Source: Candidatus Heimdallarchaeota archaeon
GTDB lineage: Archaea; Asgardarchaeota; Heimdallarchaeia; Heimdallarchaeales; Kariarchaeaceae
Direction: 5' to 3'
DNA: 11,850 bases
NCBI GenBank assembly: GCA_015523565.1
Contig: WAKA01000011.1
Coordinates: 1-11,850 of the forward strand
The first letter of the stretch is position 1. Each line of letters starts with the position of its first letter. This document shows positions 3,294 through 8,791 of this stretch, in pieces. A program made the position numbers and the translations under genes. The notes below the pieces were generated by a model that did no database searches, had not been told where the DNA came from, and worked only from the letters and a program-made list of their open reading frames with translations.

Positions 3294-3432
3294 AAAAATC
3301 AGGGATATATCTGTAGATCATTGTCATCAATAATTTTCCCATAGAAATAGTGATTGAGTTGATTATATGTGTACGCCATCTTGATCATTAAGTTGAAAGC
3401 AATATTGAGAAAGGATCAGATATTTTGGGAAC

Positions 3433-3845
3433 ATGCCAACAGGTTTGGGAAAGATCCACTTAGCTGCTTTTGATTCTTCAAAATACCAAAAGGTTCTCTT
3501 CCTCGCGCATAGAAAGAAAATTCTTCGACAAGCACGCAATGTATTTGATGAGGTGCGAGGATTTGGAAAACAACTTTTATTTTCAGAGGGATGGTACACT
3601 AAAGATATTGCAAACTGTCTTTTTGCCATTGTTCAGAAAATGTCCCGGAAAAATGTTCTGGAACGTTTTGAAAAGGATTTCTTTGACTACATCATTGTTG
3701 ATTCCATCACTCCAAAGCCAAAAGCTATGAAAAGATAATTGAGCACTTTGAACCCCAATTCTTTCTGGGTCTCACTGCAACCCCCTATAGAATGGATAAC
3801 AAGGATATCTTCGAGCCTTGCGACAGAAATGCCCCTTGCATATGT
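3433..3845 (+). pseudogene. SF2 DEAD/DEAH-like (ResIII-type) helicase-DUF3427 gene, 5' fragment
   Basis: Walker A MPTGLGK(I)HLAAFD, motif Ia VLFLAHRKKIL, and FDYIIVD. A frameshift at ~3700 (GA|TTC CAT CAC) destroys the expected DEFHH. The shifted frame continues FHHSKAKSYEKIIEHFEPQFFLGLTATPYRMD (motif III) to CDRNAPCIC at the insertion junction. Confidence 0.85.
3839..3845 (+). repeat. 7-bp direct repeat CATATGT, left copy (target-site duplication or crossover core)
   Basis: Identical to 6024-6030, and located exactly where helicase homology stops. Confidence 0.8.
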
Positions 3846-3889
3846 GTTTGGAAATGTAAAAACGGAAAATGTAACAAATAACATGTAAG

Positions 3890-5095
3890 CTATATTTTGA
3901 ATTCATCCAATTCATTCATAAAAAATAGATTGTTGTTTTTTTTCCGAACCAAGAAAATCATTGCAAAAGAAACTAAGGACAAAGAAGGAAAAGAGGATGA
4001 ATTGGACAAGGTTGATAGGCTGTCAAATTTCCCATCAGGATATAACTCACCAGCGTAAAATTGATAGCTTTCAAAGACAAATTTTGCATTGCCCTCTCCC
4101 TCATAGAAAAAGAGTATTGATGAATTTTCGGGATTGAAGTCGGGATAGGGGATTTCTGGGGCAATGTATTTTTTAGATACCAGAAAACTATAAAATAAGC
4201 GGGTATGGGAAAGAAATCCGTTAACAGTCACCTGTATCATTGATGCGATTTCCATATGGTTTTTGTCTAGTTTCCTTGCATAAAATGATTCATTGCTTGT
4301 ATTGGGAAGATGAGAGGGGACGCTTTCTATCAAAGAATACCCTTGGAGATAGTCAGAGTAATCGTCATATTCATCAATGTCTGTATTTGACATAAGCAAG
4401 ATTGTCAGTACCCCATTTGCAGAGACATTGAATAGTTCCACGGCAACAGTTGCAGAGATAAGCATTTGTGGAACTATATCCTTGTAATGGTTTCTGGATG
4501 CAAGTTGTACTGCTTTCGGACGGATGCCATAATACTTGAAGTTGTCTTGCTCAATTTTAATGGTCATCTGGGCAGTGGCATTGCCTTCATAGTAAATGGC
4601 AAACAATCCCGATTTAATGCCACTGCCAGGTCTTAGGGACAGATTTACAACCGTTTGGCTCCCATTCAATTTAAACGGGAAAATGAGTGTAAAATTGCCA
4701 TCGTCACCCAATTCATCCCACCATCTCCCATTCCATTGGTCATCGGAAATCCCTTCGTCGGAGACGTTATAAGGCAATTTCTTGAAATACCTGTCGACAA
4801 CATCTTCAATATGTTCTGGGACAGTCACGTTCCTTTCTGCAAAATTTACCAAATAGAATTGACCTTGCACGGTCGAATCCGAAATGTATAGCCTATTGGG
4901 GGGAAACATGCTGTATTCTGTAAGAAAGGCATATTTAGAGGCATTGACCCAGATAGAGTAAGGATTTCCTGAATGGATGCGGATCTGAGTTGGCGAGAGC
5001 AAAACAAAACGATCCACATCTTGAAGCTCCAAACCAGCAGATACAGGAACCATCAAGGAAATCAGAACCGTAAAGGCAAATAGTTTTTTCATCAT
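3890..5095 (-). CDS. Exported, probably C-terminally anchored surface glycoprotein of unknown function
   Basis: Signal peptide MMKKLFAFTVLISLMVPVSA, 12 N-x-S/T sequons, and a Ser-rich linker followed by a hydrophobic segment and basic cluster (SFPSLSLVSFAMIFLV-RKK) resembling archaeal CTERM sorting signals. The start overlaps the S8 stop (ATGA, 5092-5095). Confidence 0.8.
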   Translation of the reverse strand: MMKKLFAFTVLISLMVPVSAGLELQDVDRFVLLSPTQIRIHSGNPYSIWVNASKYAFLTEYSMFPPNRLYISDSTVQGQFYLVNFAERNVTVPEHIEDVVDRYFKKLPYNVSDEGISDDQWNGRWWDELGDDGNFTLIFPFKLNGSQTVVNLSLRPGSGIKSGLFAIYYEGNATAQMTIKIEQDNFKYYGIRPKAVQLASRNHYKDIVPQMLISATVAVELFNVSANGVLTILLMSNTDIDEYDDYSDYLQGYSLIESVPSHLPNTSNESFYARKLDKNHMEIASMIQVTVNGFLSHTRLFYSFLVSKKYIAPEIPYPDFNPENSSILFFYEGEGNAKFVFESYQFYAGELYPDGKFDSLSTLSNSSSFPSLSLVSFAMIFLVRKKNNNLFFMNELDEFKI

Positions 5096-6030
5096 AGATA
5101 GAAACCTCCAGATGCACCGCCACCAGTTGATTGGTTTGGGGCTTCCACAAACCCTTTTGTAAAGGCAAGCGGATATAAATCATTCAGCGTAAACCAACCC
5201 CATCCCATTTTTTGATCCCAAGCACTTTGTGAGGAAATAGTTTTGAGCCAATCATCAATTTGGTCGGGTGACGGATAAACTATTGGGCAATCAGGATTTT
5301 TTGACATCCAGCCAATTTTGTATGCATACAAAAACACTAGAATCATAGCAGCAAAATATGGTGTGGAATAGCTGGTGCCTACGCCATATACTGCATGTAT
5401 ACCTTCGTTGTAGGTATTTGTATAAATTGGAACGCCATTTCCAGGGAGAACAAAGGACGTCCCTGCAGCGATGGAATTCGCACCATATGAAGAGCAAAGA
5501 GTTAATGGGGCATCAGGACAGTTATGCAAGCCATACTCGGATGTTCCACTGAATTGCCATTTTGCAGAATAATAGTCCCAATCATAAATATCAAGAGGCT
5601 TCCCGTCGATATAAACCGTATAGAGATATTTTTTCCTGTCTTCATGGTCAACTGACCCAATGCTTCTAAATTCAGTTCGGTTTACAGGGAAATTGGGGTT
5701 CATTGTTCCTGAATTGCCAACGCTTGTTATTAAATACACCCCTTTCTGCAAAACATTTTGAAATTTACCAGTGTTATATATCCCCCTGATATCACCTATC
5801 GAAAGAAACAGGACTTTCGCGGCATATTGATCTACTTTTTCAAGAATTAAATTCACAAGGGCGTCACTGTCCAATTTGTATCCCGCGTCATAATCAACTC
5901 TTTTAGAATATTTATCAACATCAATAAAAATAACTTGTGCACCACGAGCGATGGTCATTAAAGCACTTAAAACCTCAAATGAATGATGAGTAGTATAATC
6001 CCATGTTCCCAAATCACCATCATCATATGT
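5092..6030 (-). pseudogene. 5'-truncated S8 protease paralog (lacks signal peptide and catalytic Asp)
   Basis: Retains THHSFEV (His), SVGNSG (oxyanion Asn) and GVGTSYSTP (Ser). Aligns to the 1-1068 protease (GSVDH/GSIDH, YDWDYYS in both, FVLPG/FVMPG). The frame is open up to the junction (TYDDGDL vs AYTDADL), so ~125 N-terminal residues are missing. TTG 6012 is probably not the original start. Confidence 0.8.
6024..6030 (+). repeat. 7-bp direct repeat CATATGT, right copy
   Basis: Identical to 3839-3845. Helicase sequence resumes immediately after it. Confidence 0.8.
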
Positions 6031-6595
6031 AACCTTCCAGAAGCAATTGAAAATAATTGGCTTGTTCCCTTCGAATTCATGGGATCATAGATGACATTGT
6101 TGACTATACCCAAATCACTTGGAAACGGTCAAAGGGATATGATACACAAGAACTGACTGTTGCATTGACTCGTGAAGAACGGGCATCATCTGTTCTTAAG
6201 GAATATCGAGAAATCAGCAAACGACCACCATTGGCATTCTGAGTCTCAATTGAACACTCAAACTACATGACACCTTTCAATGGGAATCCCAAAATAACAC
6301 CACACGAAGCAGTGAAATCGGAAAAATAATCTGTGAAGACCCAAGATATAATAATTACGAAAAATTGCTTTTTGTTAGACTCAAGAAAAATGATCAATTA
6401 TTCAAATACAATTACTTCATTATTGGTTCAGTTAGCCTTATCGCCCATACAGGTGAGAAACCAATTTCCGTCAAATGGAGATTGAACCAACCAATTCCAG
6501 AATATCTTCACAAATATTTCACTGATGCAACCTTCAGAGCATATAGTATCCCTGAAGAAATCCAAATGCTTGAAGGGGTTGAGTACGTTTCCTAA
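6031..6595 (+). pseudogene. SF2 helicase-DUF3427 gene, 3' fragments
   Basis: NLPEAIENNWLVPFE, then a frameshift at ~6076, then HGIIDDIVDYTQITWK...EERASSVL...LAF*VSIEHSNYM (motif IV with TGA at 6240-6242 where Cys is expected). An abrupt jump at ~6266 leads to DTFQWESQNNTT...LFVR...HTGEKPISVKWRLNQPIP, which I recognise as DUF3427-like. Stop at 6595. Confidence 0.8.
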
Positions 6596-6774: not shown

Positions 6775-6864
6775 GAGGCTATAGCTCAGCTTGGAAGAGC
6801 GCCTCCCTTCTAACTGAAAAAGGTGGTTAGGAGGAAGTCGTGGGTTCAAATCCCACTAGCCTCG
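6775..6864 (+). tRNA. tRNA-Arg(TCT) with a 16-nt intron at canonical position 37/38 (6813-6828)
   Basis: Acceptor stem GAGGCTA/TAGCCTC plus G73. D arm GCTC/GAGC with A20 (Arg identity element). Anticodon stem CCTCC/GGAGG with CT-TCT-A. T arm GTGGG-TTCAAAT-CCCAC. No encoded CCA. Confidence 0.93.
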
Positions 6865-7131: not shown

Positions 7132-7410
7132 GTAAATTAAAATTGCAGAAATAGTAAAAAAATATCTTTTTATGAAAAGATGGCGAGAATATATAATTAT
7201 GGAATAAAGCATTATTTCATTTTTCAGCCAATTTACACATCGTTTCAGAACATTATTTTTAATAAACAATAATCCCAACAACCCAAGCAATGATAAGCTT
7301 GAACTTGATTTGGATGATTGCAAATTCCCATTGCACATCCAATTTGTAGTATATGATTGACCATGTGAGAAAAAATGCAAGAAGAAGAATGTTGAAGGGG
7401 ATAACAAGAA

Positions 7411-7464: not shown

Positions 7465-8082
7465 GTGGTACGTGACTTAATAGGTTGGCTTGTAGGTGGC
7501 AAAAGTAAAAAATCTAGTCGAGAGCAAATAACAAACTTGAAACTAGTATCAAAGCGGCTTGCACGATCACAAAGGAAGCTTGAAAGCAAACAGAGGCAGG
7601 CAGAACGAAAGATCAAGCAGGCATTGCAAAAGGGAGATATGGAAGCGGCACGAATGTATGCCAATGATGTAGTTCGTGCCAAGAAATGGGCAAGAGGATA
7701 TCAAAGCCTAATTTCGAAGATAGATGGTTTGATGTTCAAGCTTGAAAGAACGGATGCAGTTCAATCCTTAGCTGGAGAAATGAAGGGAATTGCTACGAGT
7801 CTGAGAGAGGCAAGCGCGGCGTTGAAGATGCAAGGACTTGATGATGTCATTGCAGACATGGAAGAGGCAATGGAAGAGGTGGAGATTTCCAGCGAGGTCA
7901 TGGAGGATTCAGTGGAAGGCTTGTTTACCAGTGACATTGATGAAGGAGAGGTTGACAATCTCCTTGCAGAATATGGAGCAGAGGTTGGCATAAGTGCATC
8001 AAGTGGTTTACCGACACCTATTGCGACCTCAAAGGTTTCCGATCTTGAGAAAGAGATTGAGGAATTACGAAAAGACGATTAG
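7465..8082 (+). CDS. ESCRT-III (Snf7 domain) protein, Vps2/24/46 (CHMP1-3) class
   Basis: Basic N-terminal helical hairpin with the class-typical IKQALQKGDMEAARMYANDVVR, and an acidic C-terminal half. N-terminal amphipathic helix MVRDLIGWLVGG, EVDNLLAEY helix 5, LPTP linker, and C-terminal MIM1-like DLEKEIEELRK. Confidence 0.9.
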   Translation: MVRDLIGWLVGGKSKKSSREQITNLKLVSKRLARSQRKLESKQRQAERKIKQALQKGDMEAARMYANDVVRAKKWARGYQSLISKIDGLMFKLERTDAVQSLAGEMKGIATSLREASAALKMQGLDDVIADMEEAMEEVEISSEVMEDSVEGLFTSDIDEGEVDNLLAEYGAEVGISASSGLPTPIATSKVSDLEKEIEELRKDD

Positions 8083-8089
8083 GTGATGG

Positions 8090-8791
8090 ATGATGGGAAA
8101 GCTTAAGGATTGGTTATTTGGGAAAGACAAAAAATCAACGAAAAATAAAGAGGCAGAAGCCATTGCATTGTTGAAGAAACGTTTGAACAAGTATGAAATA
8201 GAATCAAGGAATCTTCAACAGAAGGCGGATGAACAAAAGGCATTGGCCAAGAAAATGCTGGCGTCAGGCAATAAGGCAGGGGCACGACAGGCATTGATGC
8301 GAAGCAAATTGTATATGCAAAAGTATAACAATACACAGAACCTGATGTTAAATCTCCATACACAGATTGAAACAATAAGCACTGCAAAAGAAACCGTTGA
8401 AACAGTCAAAGCATTGAAAGTAGGCAGTGATGTTGTTGAAACATCCCTTGGGGAGATTTCAGAATTGGATGCAGACAGGGTGATGGTTGAACTTGAAGAG
8501 CAACGTGACAGGCTGGGAGTATTGAATGAAGCATTATCAGACATTTCAGGATTGGAGATGGATCTTGAGGATGATTTTGCAGATAGCATTGATAACGAAC
8601 TGGCACAATTGGAACTCGAAATGGAGGCGGAAAAGCATGGTACCTTACCAGAGGTGGGAGCCAGTCCAGTAACCACCACCTCAGTAACAGAAAGCAAAGA
8701 AGAAGAAAAGGAGACAAAAGAAAGTTCAGAAGAAAGCTCAAATTTGGAAGATGAATTAGAAGCTTTGAAAAAGGAATTAGAGGGAAAATAG
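8090..8791 (+). CDS. ESCRT-III (Snf7 domain) protein, Vps20/32/60 (CHMP4-7) class
   Basis: GNKAGARQALMRSKLY (cf. Snf7 NKRAALQALKRKK), NLHTQIETISTA...TVKALKVG, IDNELAQLE, MIM2-like LPEVGASP, and C-terminal LEDELEALKKEL. AGGTGA RBS overlaps the upstream stop. Confidence 0.9.
   Translation: MMGKLKDWLFGKDKKSTKNKEAEAIALLKKRLNKYEIESRNLQQKADEQKALAKKMLASGNKAGARQALMRSKLYMQKYNNTQNLMLNLHTQIETISTAKETVETVKALKVGSDVVETSLGEISELDADRVMVELEEQRDRLGVLNEALSDISGLEMDLEDDFADSIDNELAQLELEMEAEKHGTLPEVGASPVTTTSVTESKEEEKETKESSEESSNLEDELEALKKELEGK

Follow-up and report, generated by a model that had tools for sequence, protein, structure and literature searches.

A CATATG palindrome at every breakpoint of an operon fragment inserted into, and partly deleted from, an archaeal helicase pseudogene

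Introduction

How does the 3′ part of a protease operon come to lie inside a helicase gene, between two copies of a 7-bp repeat and with no recombinase gene of its own? The question is raised by a locus on the window, i.e., the whole stretch of 11,850 nucleotides analysed here. The initial annotation proposed two kinds of answer. The insert could be a retrocopy made by target-primed reverse transcription of an mRNA, or it could result from DNA-level joining through a short shared core, by integration of a circle or by microhomology. We followed up these proposals using the sequence of the locus, its alleles in related genomes and metagenomes, and the distribution of the repeated motif.

Data and scope

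The window belongs to contig C11 of a fragmented, 90%-complete MAG (233 contigs) from a vent archaeon population. The comparison genome, G001, is a sister species of the same genus and has a colinear locus on its contig C28. Contigs of three metagenome runs (X1, X2 and X3) were aligned to the window for junctions, alleles and depth. Direct repeats were counted as pairs of 6 bp or more in the region 3780-6090. For the S8 fragment of the insert, the paralogue at 1-1068 and P0002-P0004 served as comparison. The evidence for the whole case comes from one locus and one study.

Results

Ends of the insert and the empty site

In the window sequence, 2185 bp (3846-6030) lie inserted between two copies of CATATGT, at the positions indicated by the initial annotation (Table 1). 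The insert sequence at the 3846 boundary is GTTTGGAAATG. Joining the flanks with a single CATATGT gives an insert-free sequence that translates as CDRNAPCIC/NLPEAIENNWLVPF and aligns without gaps across the junction to G001, which reads CDRNVPYICTLPEAIENNWLVPF there, with a single CATCTGT. The exact empty site is present in an X3 contig (depth about 40) that joins 3838 to 6024. The empty helicase allele that had been sought was therefore found twice, in the sister species and in a sister strain. Each junction of the insert is supported in an independent run, the left one by X1 record 1 (3300-4228) and the right one by X2 record 14 (5326-6353).

Table 1. Features of the helicase locus and its insert (window coordinates)
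Feature	Position	Strand	Remarks
Helicase pseudogene, left part (PLD/ResIII/DUF3427; motifs I-III, frameshifted)	3433..3845	+	Pfam ResIII matches; colinear with G001:C28, 77% nucleotide identity
Left CATATGT (site 1)	3839..3845	.	Copy from target; helicase codons C-I-C; single CATCTGT there in G001
Inserted DNA: promoterless 3′ part of subtilase/secreted-protein operon	3846..6023	-	Missing in G001 and in the X3 contig
401-aa gene	3890..5095	-	Predicted signal peptide, many N-x-S/T sequons, C-terminal TM helix, no Pfam family
CATATG site 2, inside insert	4253..4258	.	Breakpoint common to both deletion alleles
5′-truncated S8 subtilase fragment	5095..6030	-	312 codons read from junction; retains His and Ser, lacks Asp region
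Fourth CATATG, inside insert	5484..5489	.	No variant using this site found in the contigs examined
Right CATATGT (site 3)	6024..6030	.	CATATG common to donor S8 gene (S-Y-D codons); final T is target sequence
Helicase pseudogene, right part and DUF3427 tail	6031..6595	+	1-bp deletion at 6076; 1167-bp deletion junction 6271/6272

The target, a PLD-helicase gene of the DUF3427 type, has become a pseudogene. In addition to the lesions of its right part, its DExH motif has lost 4 bp (at about 3700), a stop lies at 3737, and the PLD N-terminus is absent. Removal of the insert restores colinearity with the helicase of G001, but the gene around it is not otherwise intact, which corrects the initial annotation. 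A tRNA gene lies 750 bp away and was not used as a target.

With 223 direct-repeat pairs at least 7 bp long in the region, a lone 7-bp repeat is not rare. What makes the CATATGT repeat significant is that homology to the empty allele ends exactly where it lies. In agreement with the initial annotation, we found no terminal inverted repeats linking the insert ends and no recombinase or transposase ORF inside the insert, whose ORFs are the S8 fragment and the secreted protein. Apart from CATATG itself, sites 1-3 and the donor site have no flanking sequence in common, which argues that there are no recombinase arm sites. The only other copy of insert sequence in the MAG, a remnant on contig C204, ends differently.

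Several known kinds of element and of enzyme site were considered and rejected. A DNA transposon, IS or MITE does not fit the lack of linking inverted repeats and transposase, nor the different ends of the C204 copy. Capture by an IS91/Helitron-type rolling-circle element does not fit the ends, and there is no Rep gene. The GTT-containing flanks do not match the GTTRRRY of integron-type sites, and CCCTT, the site of a pox-type topoisomerase IB, occurs at the left junction only. Nothing relevant was found in the literature on CATATG as a target of transposons.

Genes carried by the insert

The insert starts in the middle of an S8 gene, as first proposed: the Pfam Peptidase_S8 match covers only positions 76-288 of the profile, and the first ~125 codons of the subtilase, including the catalytic Asp, are missing. 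The start of the 401-aa gene overlaps the S8 stop (ATGA), and its own stop is at 3890-3892. The distance from this stop to the insert boundary, given earlier as about 45 nt, is 44 nt, with a T5 tract (coding strand) 10-15 nt inside the boundary. Paralogues of the 401-aa gene adjoin S8 genes on contig C193. The insert is a dead copy, since it came without a promoter and without the catalytic Asp region, and its decay has already begun.

Donor of the insert

One X1 contig (record 6) matches 5716-6029 at 100% identity and then continues into upstream S8 sequence in open frame, GGVGQDDLSSYDDGDL, which fits the paralogue motif GGSGVDDLSAYTDADL. Donor and insert are identical through the CATATG at the subtilase breakpoint and diverge at the seventh base. 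The right repeat had been suspected to read as S8 sequence, and the donor contig indeed carries CATATG in the S8 frame. Since the donor has this hexamer at the 5′ breakpoint, the right-hand copy of the "duplicated" 7-mer owes six of its bases to the donor and not to target duplication. CATATG thus bounds the donor fragment at its right (subtilase) end, the one end at which the donor is known.

The search for a donor succeeded for this breakpoint but not for a full donor operon in the MAG, which contains only the degenerate C204 remnant (C204:1491-1796, 88-92% identity, with an internal deletion of its own) and paralogues of 25-40% amino acid identity. No donor turned up when metagenome, genome and viral collections were scanned with protein and DNA patterns, and a search for shorter proteins returned only the ORF of the C204 remnant. 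The closest G001 relative of the 401-aa gene (contig C18, 54% amino acid identity) was rejected as a guide to the donor because it has no adjacent S8 gene and a different context. The donor fragment may come from another strain, since the MAG lacks it and its depth in X1 is only about half that of the host locus.

Four alleles at one locus

The locus is polymorphic. Besides the empty site and the full insert, there are two alleles that have lost either 3839-4252 or 4253-6023. Their joints, 3838>4253 in X2 (where depth is zero over 3870-4211) and 4252>6024 in X1 (depth 24), lie exactly in CATATG. Other public assemblies encode junction-spanning ORFs, one per deletion allele, that are absent from the window and equal the predicted translations exactly (P0010, 139 aa, on a 7038-bp NCBI contig, and P0009, 298 aa, on a 3419-bp ENA contig). 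P0007 is encoded on the same 3419-bp contig as P0009, and P0005 on a 2206-bp contig.

The X3 empty allele has the G001 state at 3517, 3629 and 3764. Both deletion alleles carry a derived A>G at 3686, and sharing this SNP implies that they arose by two separate events from a full-length ancestor. The left flank of the window has a haplotype of its own (3660 G, 3686 A), unlike X1 and X2. In our reading, the insertion is recent.

Specificity of the breakpoints

CATATG is present, and regenerated, at both insertion junctions (3839 and 6024) and at both deletion joints. The region offers 863 direct-repeat pairs at least 6 bp long, of which six are CATATG pairs, and the chance that two random picks would both hit such pairs is about 5e-5. 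Repeats of 10-13 bp, only 160-900 bp apart, were available and not used. The palindromic hexamer in three separate events, the four alleles and the fact that the helicase had decayed before the insertion were not part of the initial annotation.

CATATG was not used in two older rearrangements, the loss of 1167 bp from the helicase and the deletion inside the C204 remnant. Deletions of the lineage other than those at CATATG show microhomology of only 2-3 bp and no special site. There was no clear enrichment of CATATG at contig ends, and no signal at the boundaries of other duplicated segments. The genome has 1302 CATATG sites (O/E 1.01), whereas the ratio is 0.40 for CTCGAG, CTGCAG, CCCGGG and CCTAGG. 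Since CATATG is not avoided, a restriction system specific for it is unlikely to have been resident for long.

We found no CATATG-specific enzyme in the MAG. It encodes several adenine methylases, whose neighbourhoods contain a type III system and, as candidates, three ORFs lacking annotation; no specificity could be assigned to any of these. One unannotated ORF, of 284 aa, adjoins the Dam-family methylase on contig C200. Of the two kinds of enzyme that the initial proposals involve, tyrosine recombinases are present (two genes, outside the insert), whereas RVT_1 (PF00078) had no match in the 90%-complete MAG; control genomes gave matches, and absence from an incomplete MAG is not proof.

Discussion

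We read the insertion as an illegitimate, DNA-level event that joined a piece of an operon into the CATATG hexamer of the helicase gene. Of the initial proposals, joining through a short shared core is the one that fits the donor CATATG and the deletion alleles. As to how the ends were made, we favour a cut-and-rejoin process at CATATG by a putative enzyme, a reading that we regard as somewhat better than an even bet. The operon piece runs from the CATATG in the subtilase gene to about 45 nt beyond the stop of the second gene. All three events would start with a double-strand cut at the palindrome, followed by rejoining of matching ends. The T at the seventh position of the repeat would then match the base beside the left site of the donor by coincidence. 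A candidate agent is an NdeI-type restriction endonuclease (CA^TATG, leaving 2-nt TA overhangs) together with a ligase, or another cutter of this flexible palindrome. Several points count against cut-and-rejoin: the site is not avoided, no cognate enzyme was found, older rearrangements did without CATATG, the 5484 site was not used, the donor is known at one end only, contig ends are not clearly enriched for CATATG, and a single locus in a single study supplies all the evidence.

The main rival, which we consider rather unlikely, is illegitimate recombination of a generic kind, guided by microhomology (MMEJ, replication slippage or a FoSTeS/MMBIR template switch). A nascent end at the helicase CATATG would have switched to the CATATG of the donor subtilase, copied 2.2 kb and returned 7 bp back, thereby duplicating CATATGT; the later deletions would be slippage between short repeats that hit the same hexamer by chance. 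The 6-bp identity of donor and target at the right junction and the 6-7 bp shared at all junctions fit such a mechanism, and a 7-bp duplication is natural when a switched template returns. The other deletions of the lineage had even shorter microhomology, CATATG is not avoided, and no enzyme has to be postulated. Yet the choice of one hexamer in three events is improbable given the 863 pairs available, the 10-13 bp repeats included, and slippage would be expected to favour longer and closer repeats instead of CATATG pairs alone. The same can be said of known cases of MMEJ and FoSTeS/MMBIR. They resemble this locus in the 6-7 bp donor-target identity, the short duplication, the disregard for gene boundaries and the dead product, but they lack site preference and favour longer, closer repeats, whereas here one hexamer was used three times and repeats of up to 13 bp were left unused.

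Site-specific recombination is improbable. A tyrosine or serine recombinase would have excised a circle from the donor locus and integrated it in the manner of Campbell through a 6-7 bp core, the deletions being later excisions. The topology fits, with one core in the empty site and two flanking the insert; excision restores the empty site exactly, and excision between any two cores would give the observed alleles. The two tyrosine recombinase genes of the MAG could be invoked. However, neither the insert nor its surroundings contain a recombinase gene, no binding arms are common to the three sites and the donor site, and an internal third core was used equally. The insert also begins within a gene, unlike a dedicated element, and the nearby tRNA gene was not targeted.

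We think it still less probable that the full 2185-bp insert exists in no cell and that C11 is a chimera, either of the two shorter alleles or of host and donor loci. It is true that no public contig except that of the MAG spans both junctions, that the sole X1 contig over 5808-6023 runs into donor sequence and not into the right flank, and that the MAG is fragmented. But the halves of the donor segment that the two shorter alleles carry adjoin each other and occupy the same site, which requires that there was once a full-length ancestor. The left-flank haplotype differs from those of X1 and X2, and the window was thus not stitched from their alleles. Nor is a k-mer assembler misled by an overlap of 6-7 bp.

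A retrocopy, i.e., a 5′-truncated operon mRNA reverse-transcribed at a nick in the helicase gene with a 7-bp target-site duplication, is barely credible: it resembles LINE-1-type retrocopies in its 5′ truncation, its flanking short direct repeat and its end shortly past the last gene (44 nt beyond the stop and just past the T5 tract), but CATATG stands in donor DNA exactly at the 5′ breakpoint, so that the right repeat is no pure duplication, the 3′ end has no tail, RVT_1 was not found in the MAG while the controls were positive, and two DNA-level deletions used the same hexamer.

Among known systems, cut-and-rejoin has its closest counterparts in restriction-promoted recombination and in REMI (restriction-enzyme-mediated integration). 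Chang and Cohen (1977) reportedly obtained cut-and-ligate recombination with EcoRI in vivo in E. coli, and Kobayashi and co-workers are said to have linked restriction-modification systems to genome rearrangements. As in those systems, a single short palindrome contains all junctions here and is restored at each joint, a fragment was inserted at a pre-existing target site, segments between any two sites were lost, and there is neither an element-encoded recombinase nor terminal repeats. Unlike them, the present case has no CATATG enzyme found, a site that is not avoided and a donor seen at one end, and it comes from a natural population of an uncultured archaeon and not from an experiment. We therefore propose only tentatively, and as the less probable outcome, a natural analogue of REMI, in which a CATATG endonuclease would cut both chromosomal and incoming DNA and a ligase would rejoin the TA-overhang ends. 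Such an endonuclease might have been acquired recently or brought by an invading element; foreign restriction fragments would be pasted into chromosomal sites, and segments between sites would be deleted.

The locus provides a clean natural series of an empty site, an insertion and two independent deletions, with all breakpoints in one palindromic hexamer. The appealing claim of an mRNA-derived retrocopy in an archaeon fails, which removes a false lead. If the pattern is not genome-wide, it would be a case of ordinary illegitimate recombination in a pseudogene. If it is, structural variation and the uptake of fragments in a population of uncultured (Asgard-type) archaea would be shaped by a site-specific cutter. 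If the analogy with REMI is true, archaea would gain transferred gene fragments and structural variants directly through restriction, and the four alleles of this locus would be its visible trace.

An insertion at CATATGT in a helicase pseudogene

The window is one whole contig (C11, 11,850 bp) of a metagenome-assembled genome of 233 contigs that is 90% complete (G000), and the public runs in which it occurs belong to a single hydrothermal-vent metagenome study. Its helicase pseudogene is interrupted by an insert with CATATGT at either end, and the flanks fused through a single copy of this heptamer read CDRNAPCIC followed by NLPEAIENNWLVPF. The initial annotation had proposed that removing the insert leaves the helicase continuous. 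This was confirmed in a sister species of the same genus (G001, contig C28, ~77% nucleotide identity), which aligns gap-free over the junction, reads CDRNVPYICTLPEAIENNWLVPF and has CATCTGT once there. Logan contigs from four runs confirmed it too: a contig of run X3 (depth ~40) joins 3838 straight to 6024, i.e., the exact empty site is present in a close strain. Since contigs also span the left junction (run X1, record 1, 3300-4228) and the right one (run X2, record 14, 5326-6353), the insertion is real, lineage-specific and polymorphic.

The target gene encodes a helicase with PLD, ResIII, Helicase_C and DUF3427 domains. The window copy has lost 4 bp within the DExH motif, 1 bp at 6076 and an internal 1167 bp at 6271/6272; it also carries a stop at 3737, and its PLD part is gone entirely. 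The X3 empty allele retains the missing 4 bp and 1 bp, and at 6269 it runs on into sequence resembling the segment deleted from the window; the helicase gene of the X3 strain therefore looks more intact. The sister-species copy (G001:C28:171-2653) is likewise fragmented, with at least three ORFs. Both copies being broken, the helicase gene is undergoing parallel decay in the two species.

Features of the window discussed in the text
Feature	Position	Strand	Remarks
CATATGT, left	3839-3845
Insert	3846-6030		2185 bp
Two genes of the insert	within 3846-6030	-	ATGA overlap
CATATG, third copy	4253-4258
CATATGT, right	6024-6030
tRNA gene	6775-6864	+	~90 nt; Rfam tRNA match, 60 bits; ~180 nt beyond helicase pseudogene end
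98-nt repeat	7268-7365		93% identity to G000:C53:875-973
Snf7 (ESCRT-III) gene	7465-8082	+	adjacent to the next
Snf7 (ESCRT-III) gene	8090-8791	+
Topoisomerase gene
Second subtilase gene

Content of the insert and its donor

The Pfam match of the first gene of the insert, a fragment of an S8 subtilase, begins at profile position 76; the His and Ser motifs are present, while the signal peptide and the Asp region are missing. The second encodes a protein of 401 aa that has a signal peptide and many sequons for glycosylation and carries a membrane helix at its C-terminus. The insert starts within an S8 gene, as originally described, and its other boundary lies 44 nt beyond the second stop codon (~45 had been given); it holds no recombinase gene and no terminal inverted repeats. 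As it has neither the operon promoter nor the N-terminal part of the protease, this copy is dead. On another contig of the genome (C193), further S8 genes precede relatives of the 401-aa protein. The closest relative of the 401-aa gene in the sister species (on G001:C18, at 4047-5210 of locus L011; 54% amino acid identity) has no adjoining S8 gene, and at the syntenic place in our genome (G000:C61:29852-29920) the gene is missing, with 68 bp between its would-be neighbours.

No complete donor is present in the genome, only a remnant on C204 (G000:C204:1491-1796) that is 88-92% identical and itself internally deleted. This remnant is an older piece of the same cassette, in which window 4025-4222 runs straight into 5669-5779 at a 2-bp microhomology, not at CATATG. 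The cassette family has therefore left dead copies more than once. Another X1 contig (record 6) matches 5716-6029 with zero mismatches and then has 144 nt unlike the window, 30 of which continue the S8 frame as GGVGQDDLSSYDDGDL (the window paralogue reads GGSGVDDLSAYTDADL). Hence, there is a copy that includes the upstream part of the gene. Its depth in X1 (9-14 for donor contigs vs 24 for the host locus) suggests that the donor may be located in another strain. Pattern scans of metagenome, genome and viral collections gave no match for its left end.

At the breakpoint this donor reads A after CATATG, in place of the T of the window; of the seven bases in the right repeat, six therefore come from the donor. 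The right repeat is a shared core and not a pure target-site duplication; of the two earlier suggestions, joining through a short shared core was right in kind.

Alleles and order of events

Two short alleles were found, one in X1 joining 4252 to 6024, the other in X2 joining 3838 to 4253 (X2 depth is zero over 3870-4211). Given the third copy of the hexamer, both joints lie within CATATG. Two proteins from other public assemblies are exactly the predicted translations of these joints, and the window encodes neither of them: P0010 (139 aa) comes from an NCBI contig of 7038 bp and P0009 (298 aa) from an ENA contig of 3419 bp. With the sister species as reference, the X3 empty allele is ancestral at 3517, 3629 and 3764, and a derived change at 3686 is common to both short alleles and absent from the window. 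From these states we infer an order running from the empty site to the full insert, as in the window, and then to two independent deletions. Because the short alleles hold neighbouring halves of a single donor segment at the same site, they require a full-length ancestor, whether or not contig C11 itself is backed by one spanning read.

Genomic context

The Snf7 pair fits the Asgard assignment. The tRNA gene, to which ARAGORN assigned no anticodon, probably contains an intron; adjoining a dead defence-type helicase, it could mark an old integrated element. The left end of the contig (1-90) overlaps C53 (G000:C53:1-6505) by 90 identical bases. C53, which thus abuts the window, encodes a type III restriction-modification pair (a 774-aa N6_N4 methylase and a 969-aa ResIII helicase), and the helicase pseudogene may accordingly sit in a defence island.

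Proposed rejoining at CATATG

CATATG is palindromic, and an enzyme of the NdeI type cuts it as CA^TATG, leaving 2-nt TA overhangs, so that ends from any two cuts can be ligated again, which regenerates the site. A site-bounded fragment would have been pasted into a CATATG of the target after cutting and religation, and either half of the insert could have been lost the same way, by cut-and-rejoin between two such sites. We lean, with only modest confidence, towards this site-directed cut-and-rejoin by a putative enzyme. Several observations weigh against it: CATATG is not avoided genome-wide (O/E 1.01) whereas four other palindromes stand at 0.40; none of the enzymes found in the genome, including the type III system of C53 and several adenine methylases whose neighbours are unannotated, is assignable to it; the older deletions of the lineage are not at CATATG; the copy at 5484 is unused; and contig ends show no clear enrichment. 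These four palindromes (CTCGAG, CTGCAG, CCCGGG and CCTAGG, O/E 0.40-0.41 in the whole genome) are strongly depleted, as restriction acting on them would lead one to expect.

The main rival, joining by plain microhomology or a template switch, is less likely. Positions 3780-6090 hold 863 direct-repeat pairs of at least 6 bp, of which six are CATATG, and the chance that two random microhomology deletions both fall on CATATG pairs is roughly 5e-5. Slippage should prefer longer repeats, and those of 10, 11 and 13 bp were unused. Integration of a circle by a recombinase has little probability left, because the flanks of the three sites and of the donor site share nothing beyond the hexamer, which argues against an enzyme with arm-binding sites. 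An assembly chimera is similarly improbable. The retroposed mRNA fragment of the initial annotation was rejected: CATATG already stands in the donor at the breakpoint, the 90%-complete genome gave no reverse transcriptase (RVT_1) match, and the deletions at the same hexamer occurred at the DNA level.

Recombination promoted by restriction enzymes in vivo, and REMI, are known from experiments. The event described here is a variant of an already known type, and it would gain in interest should variants bounded by CATATG prove common in the population.
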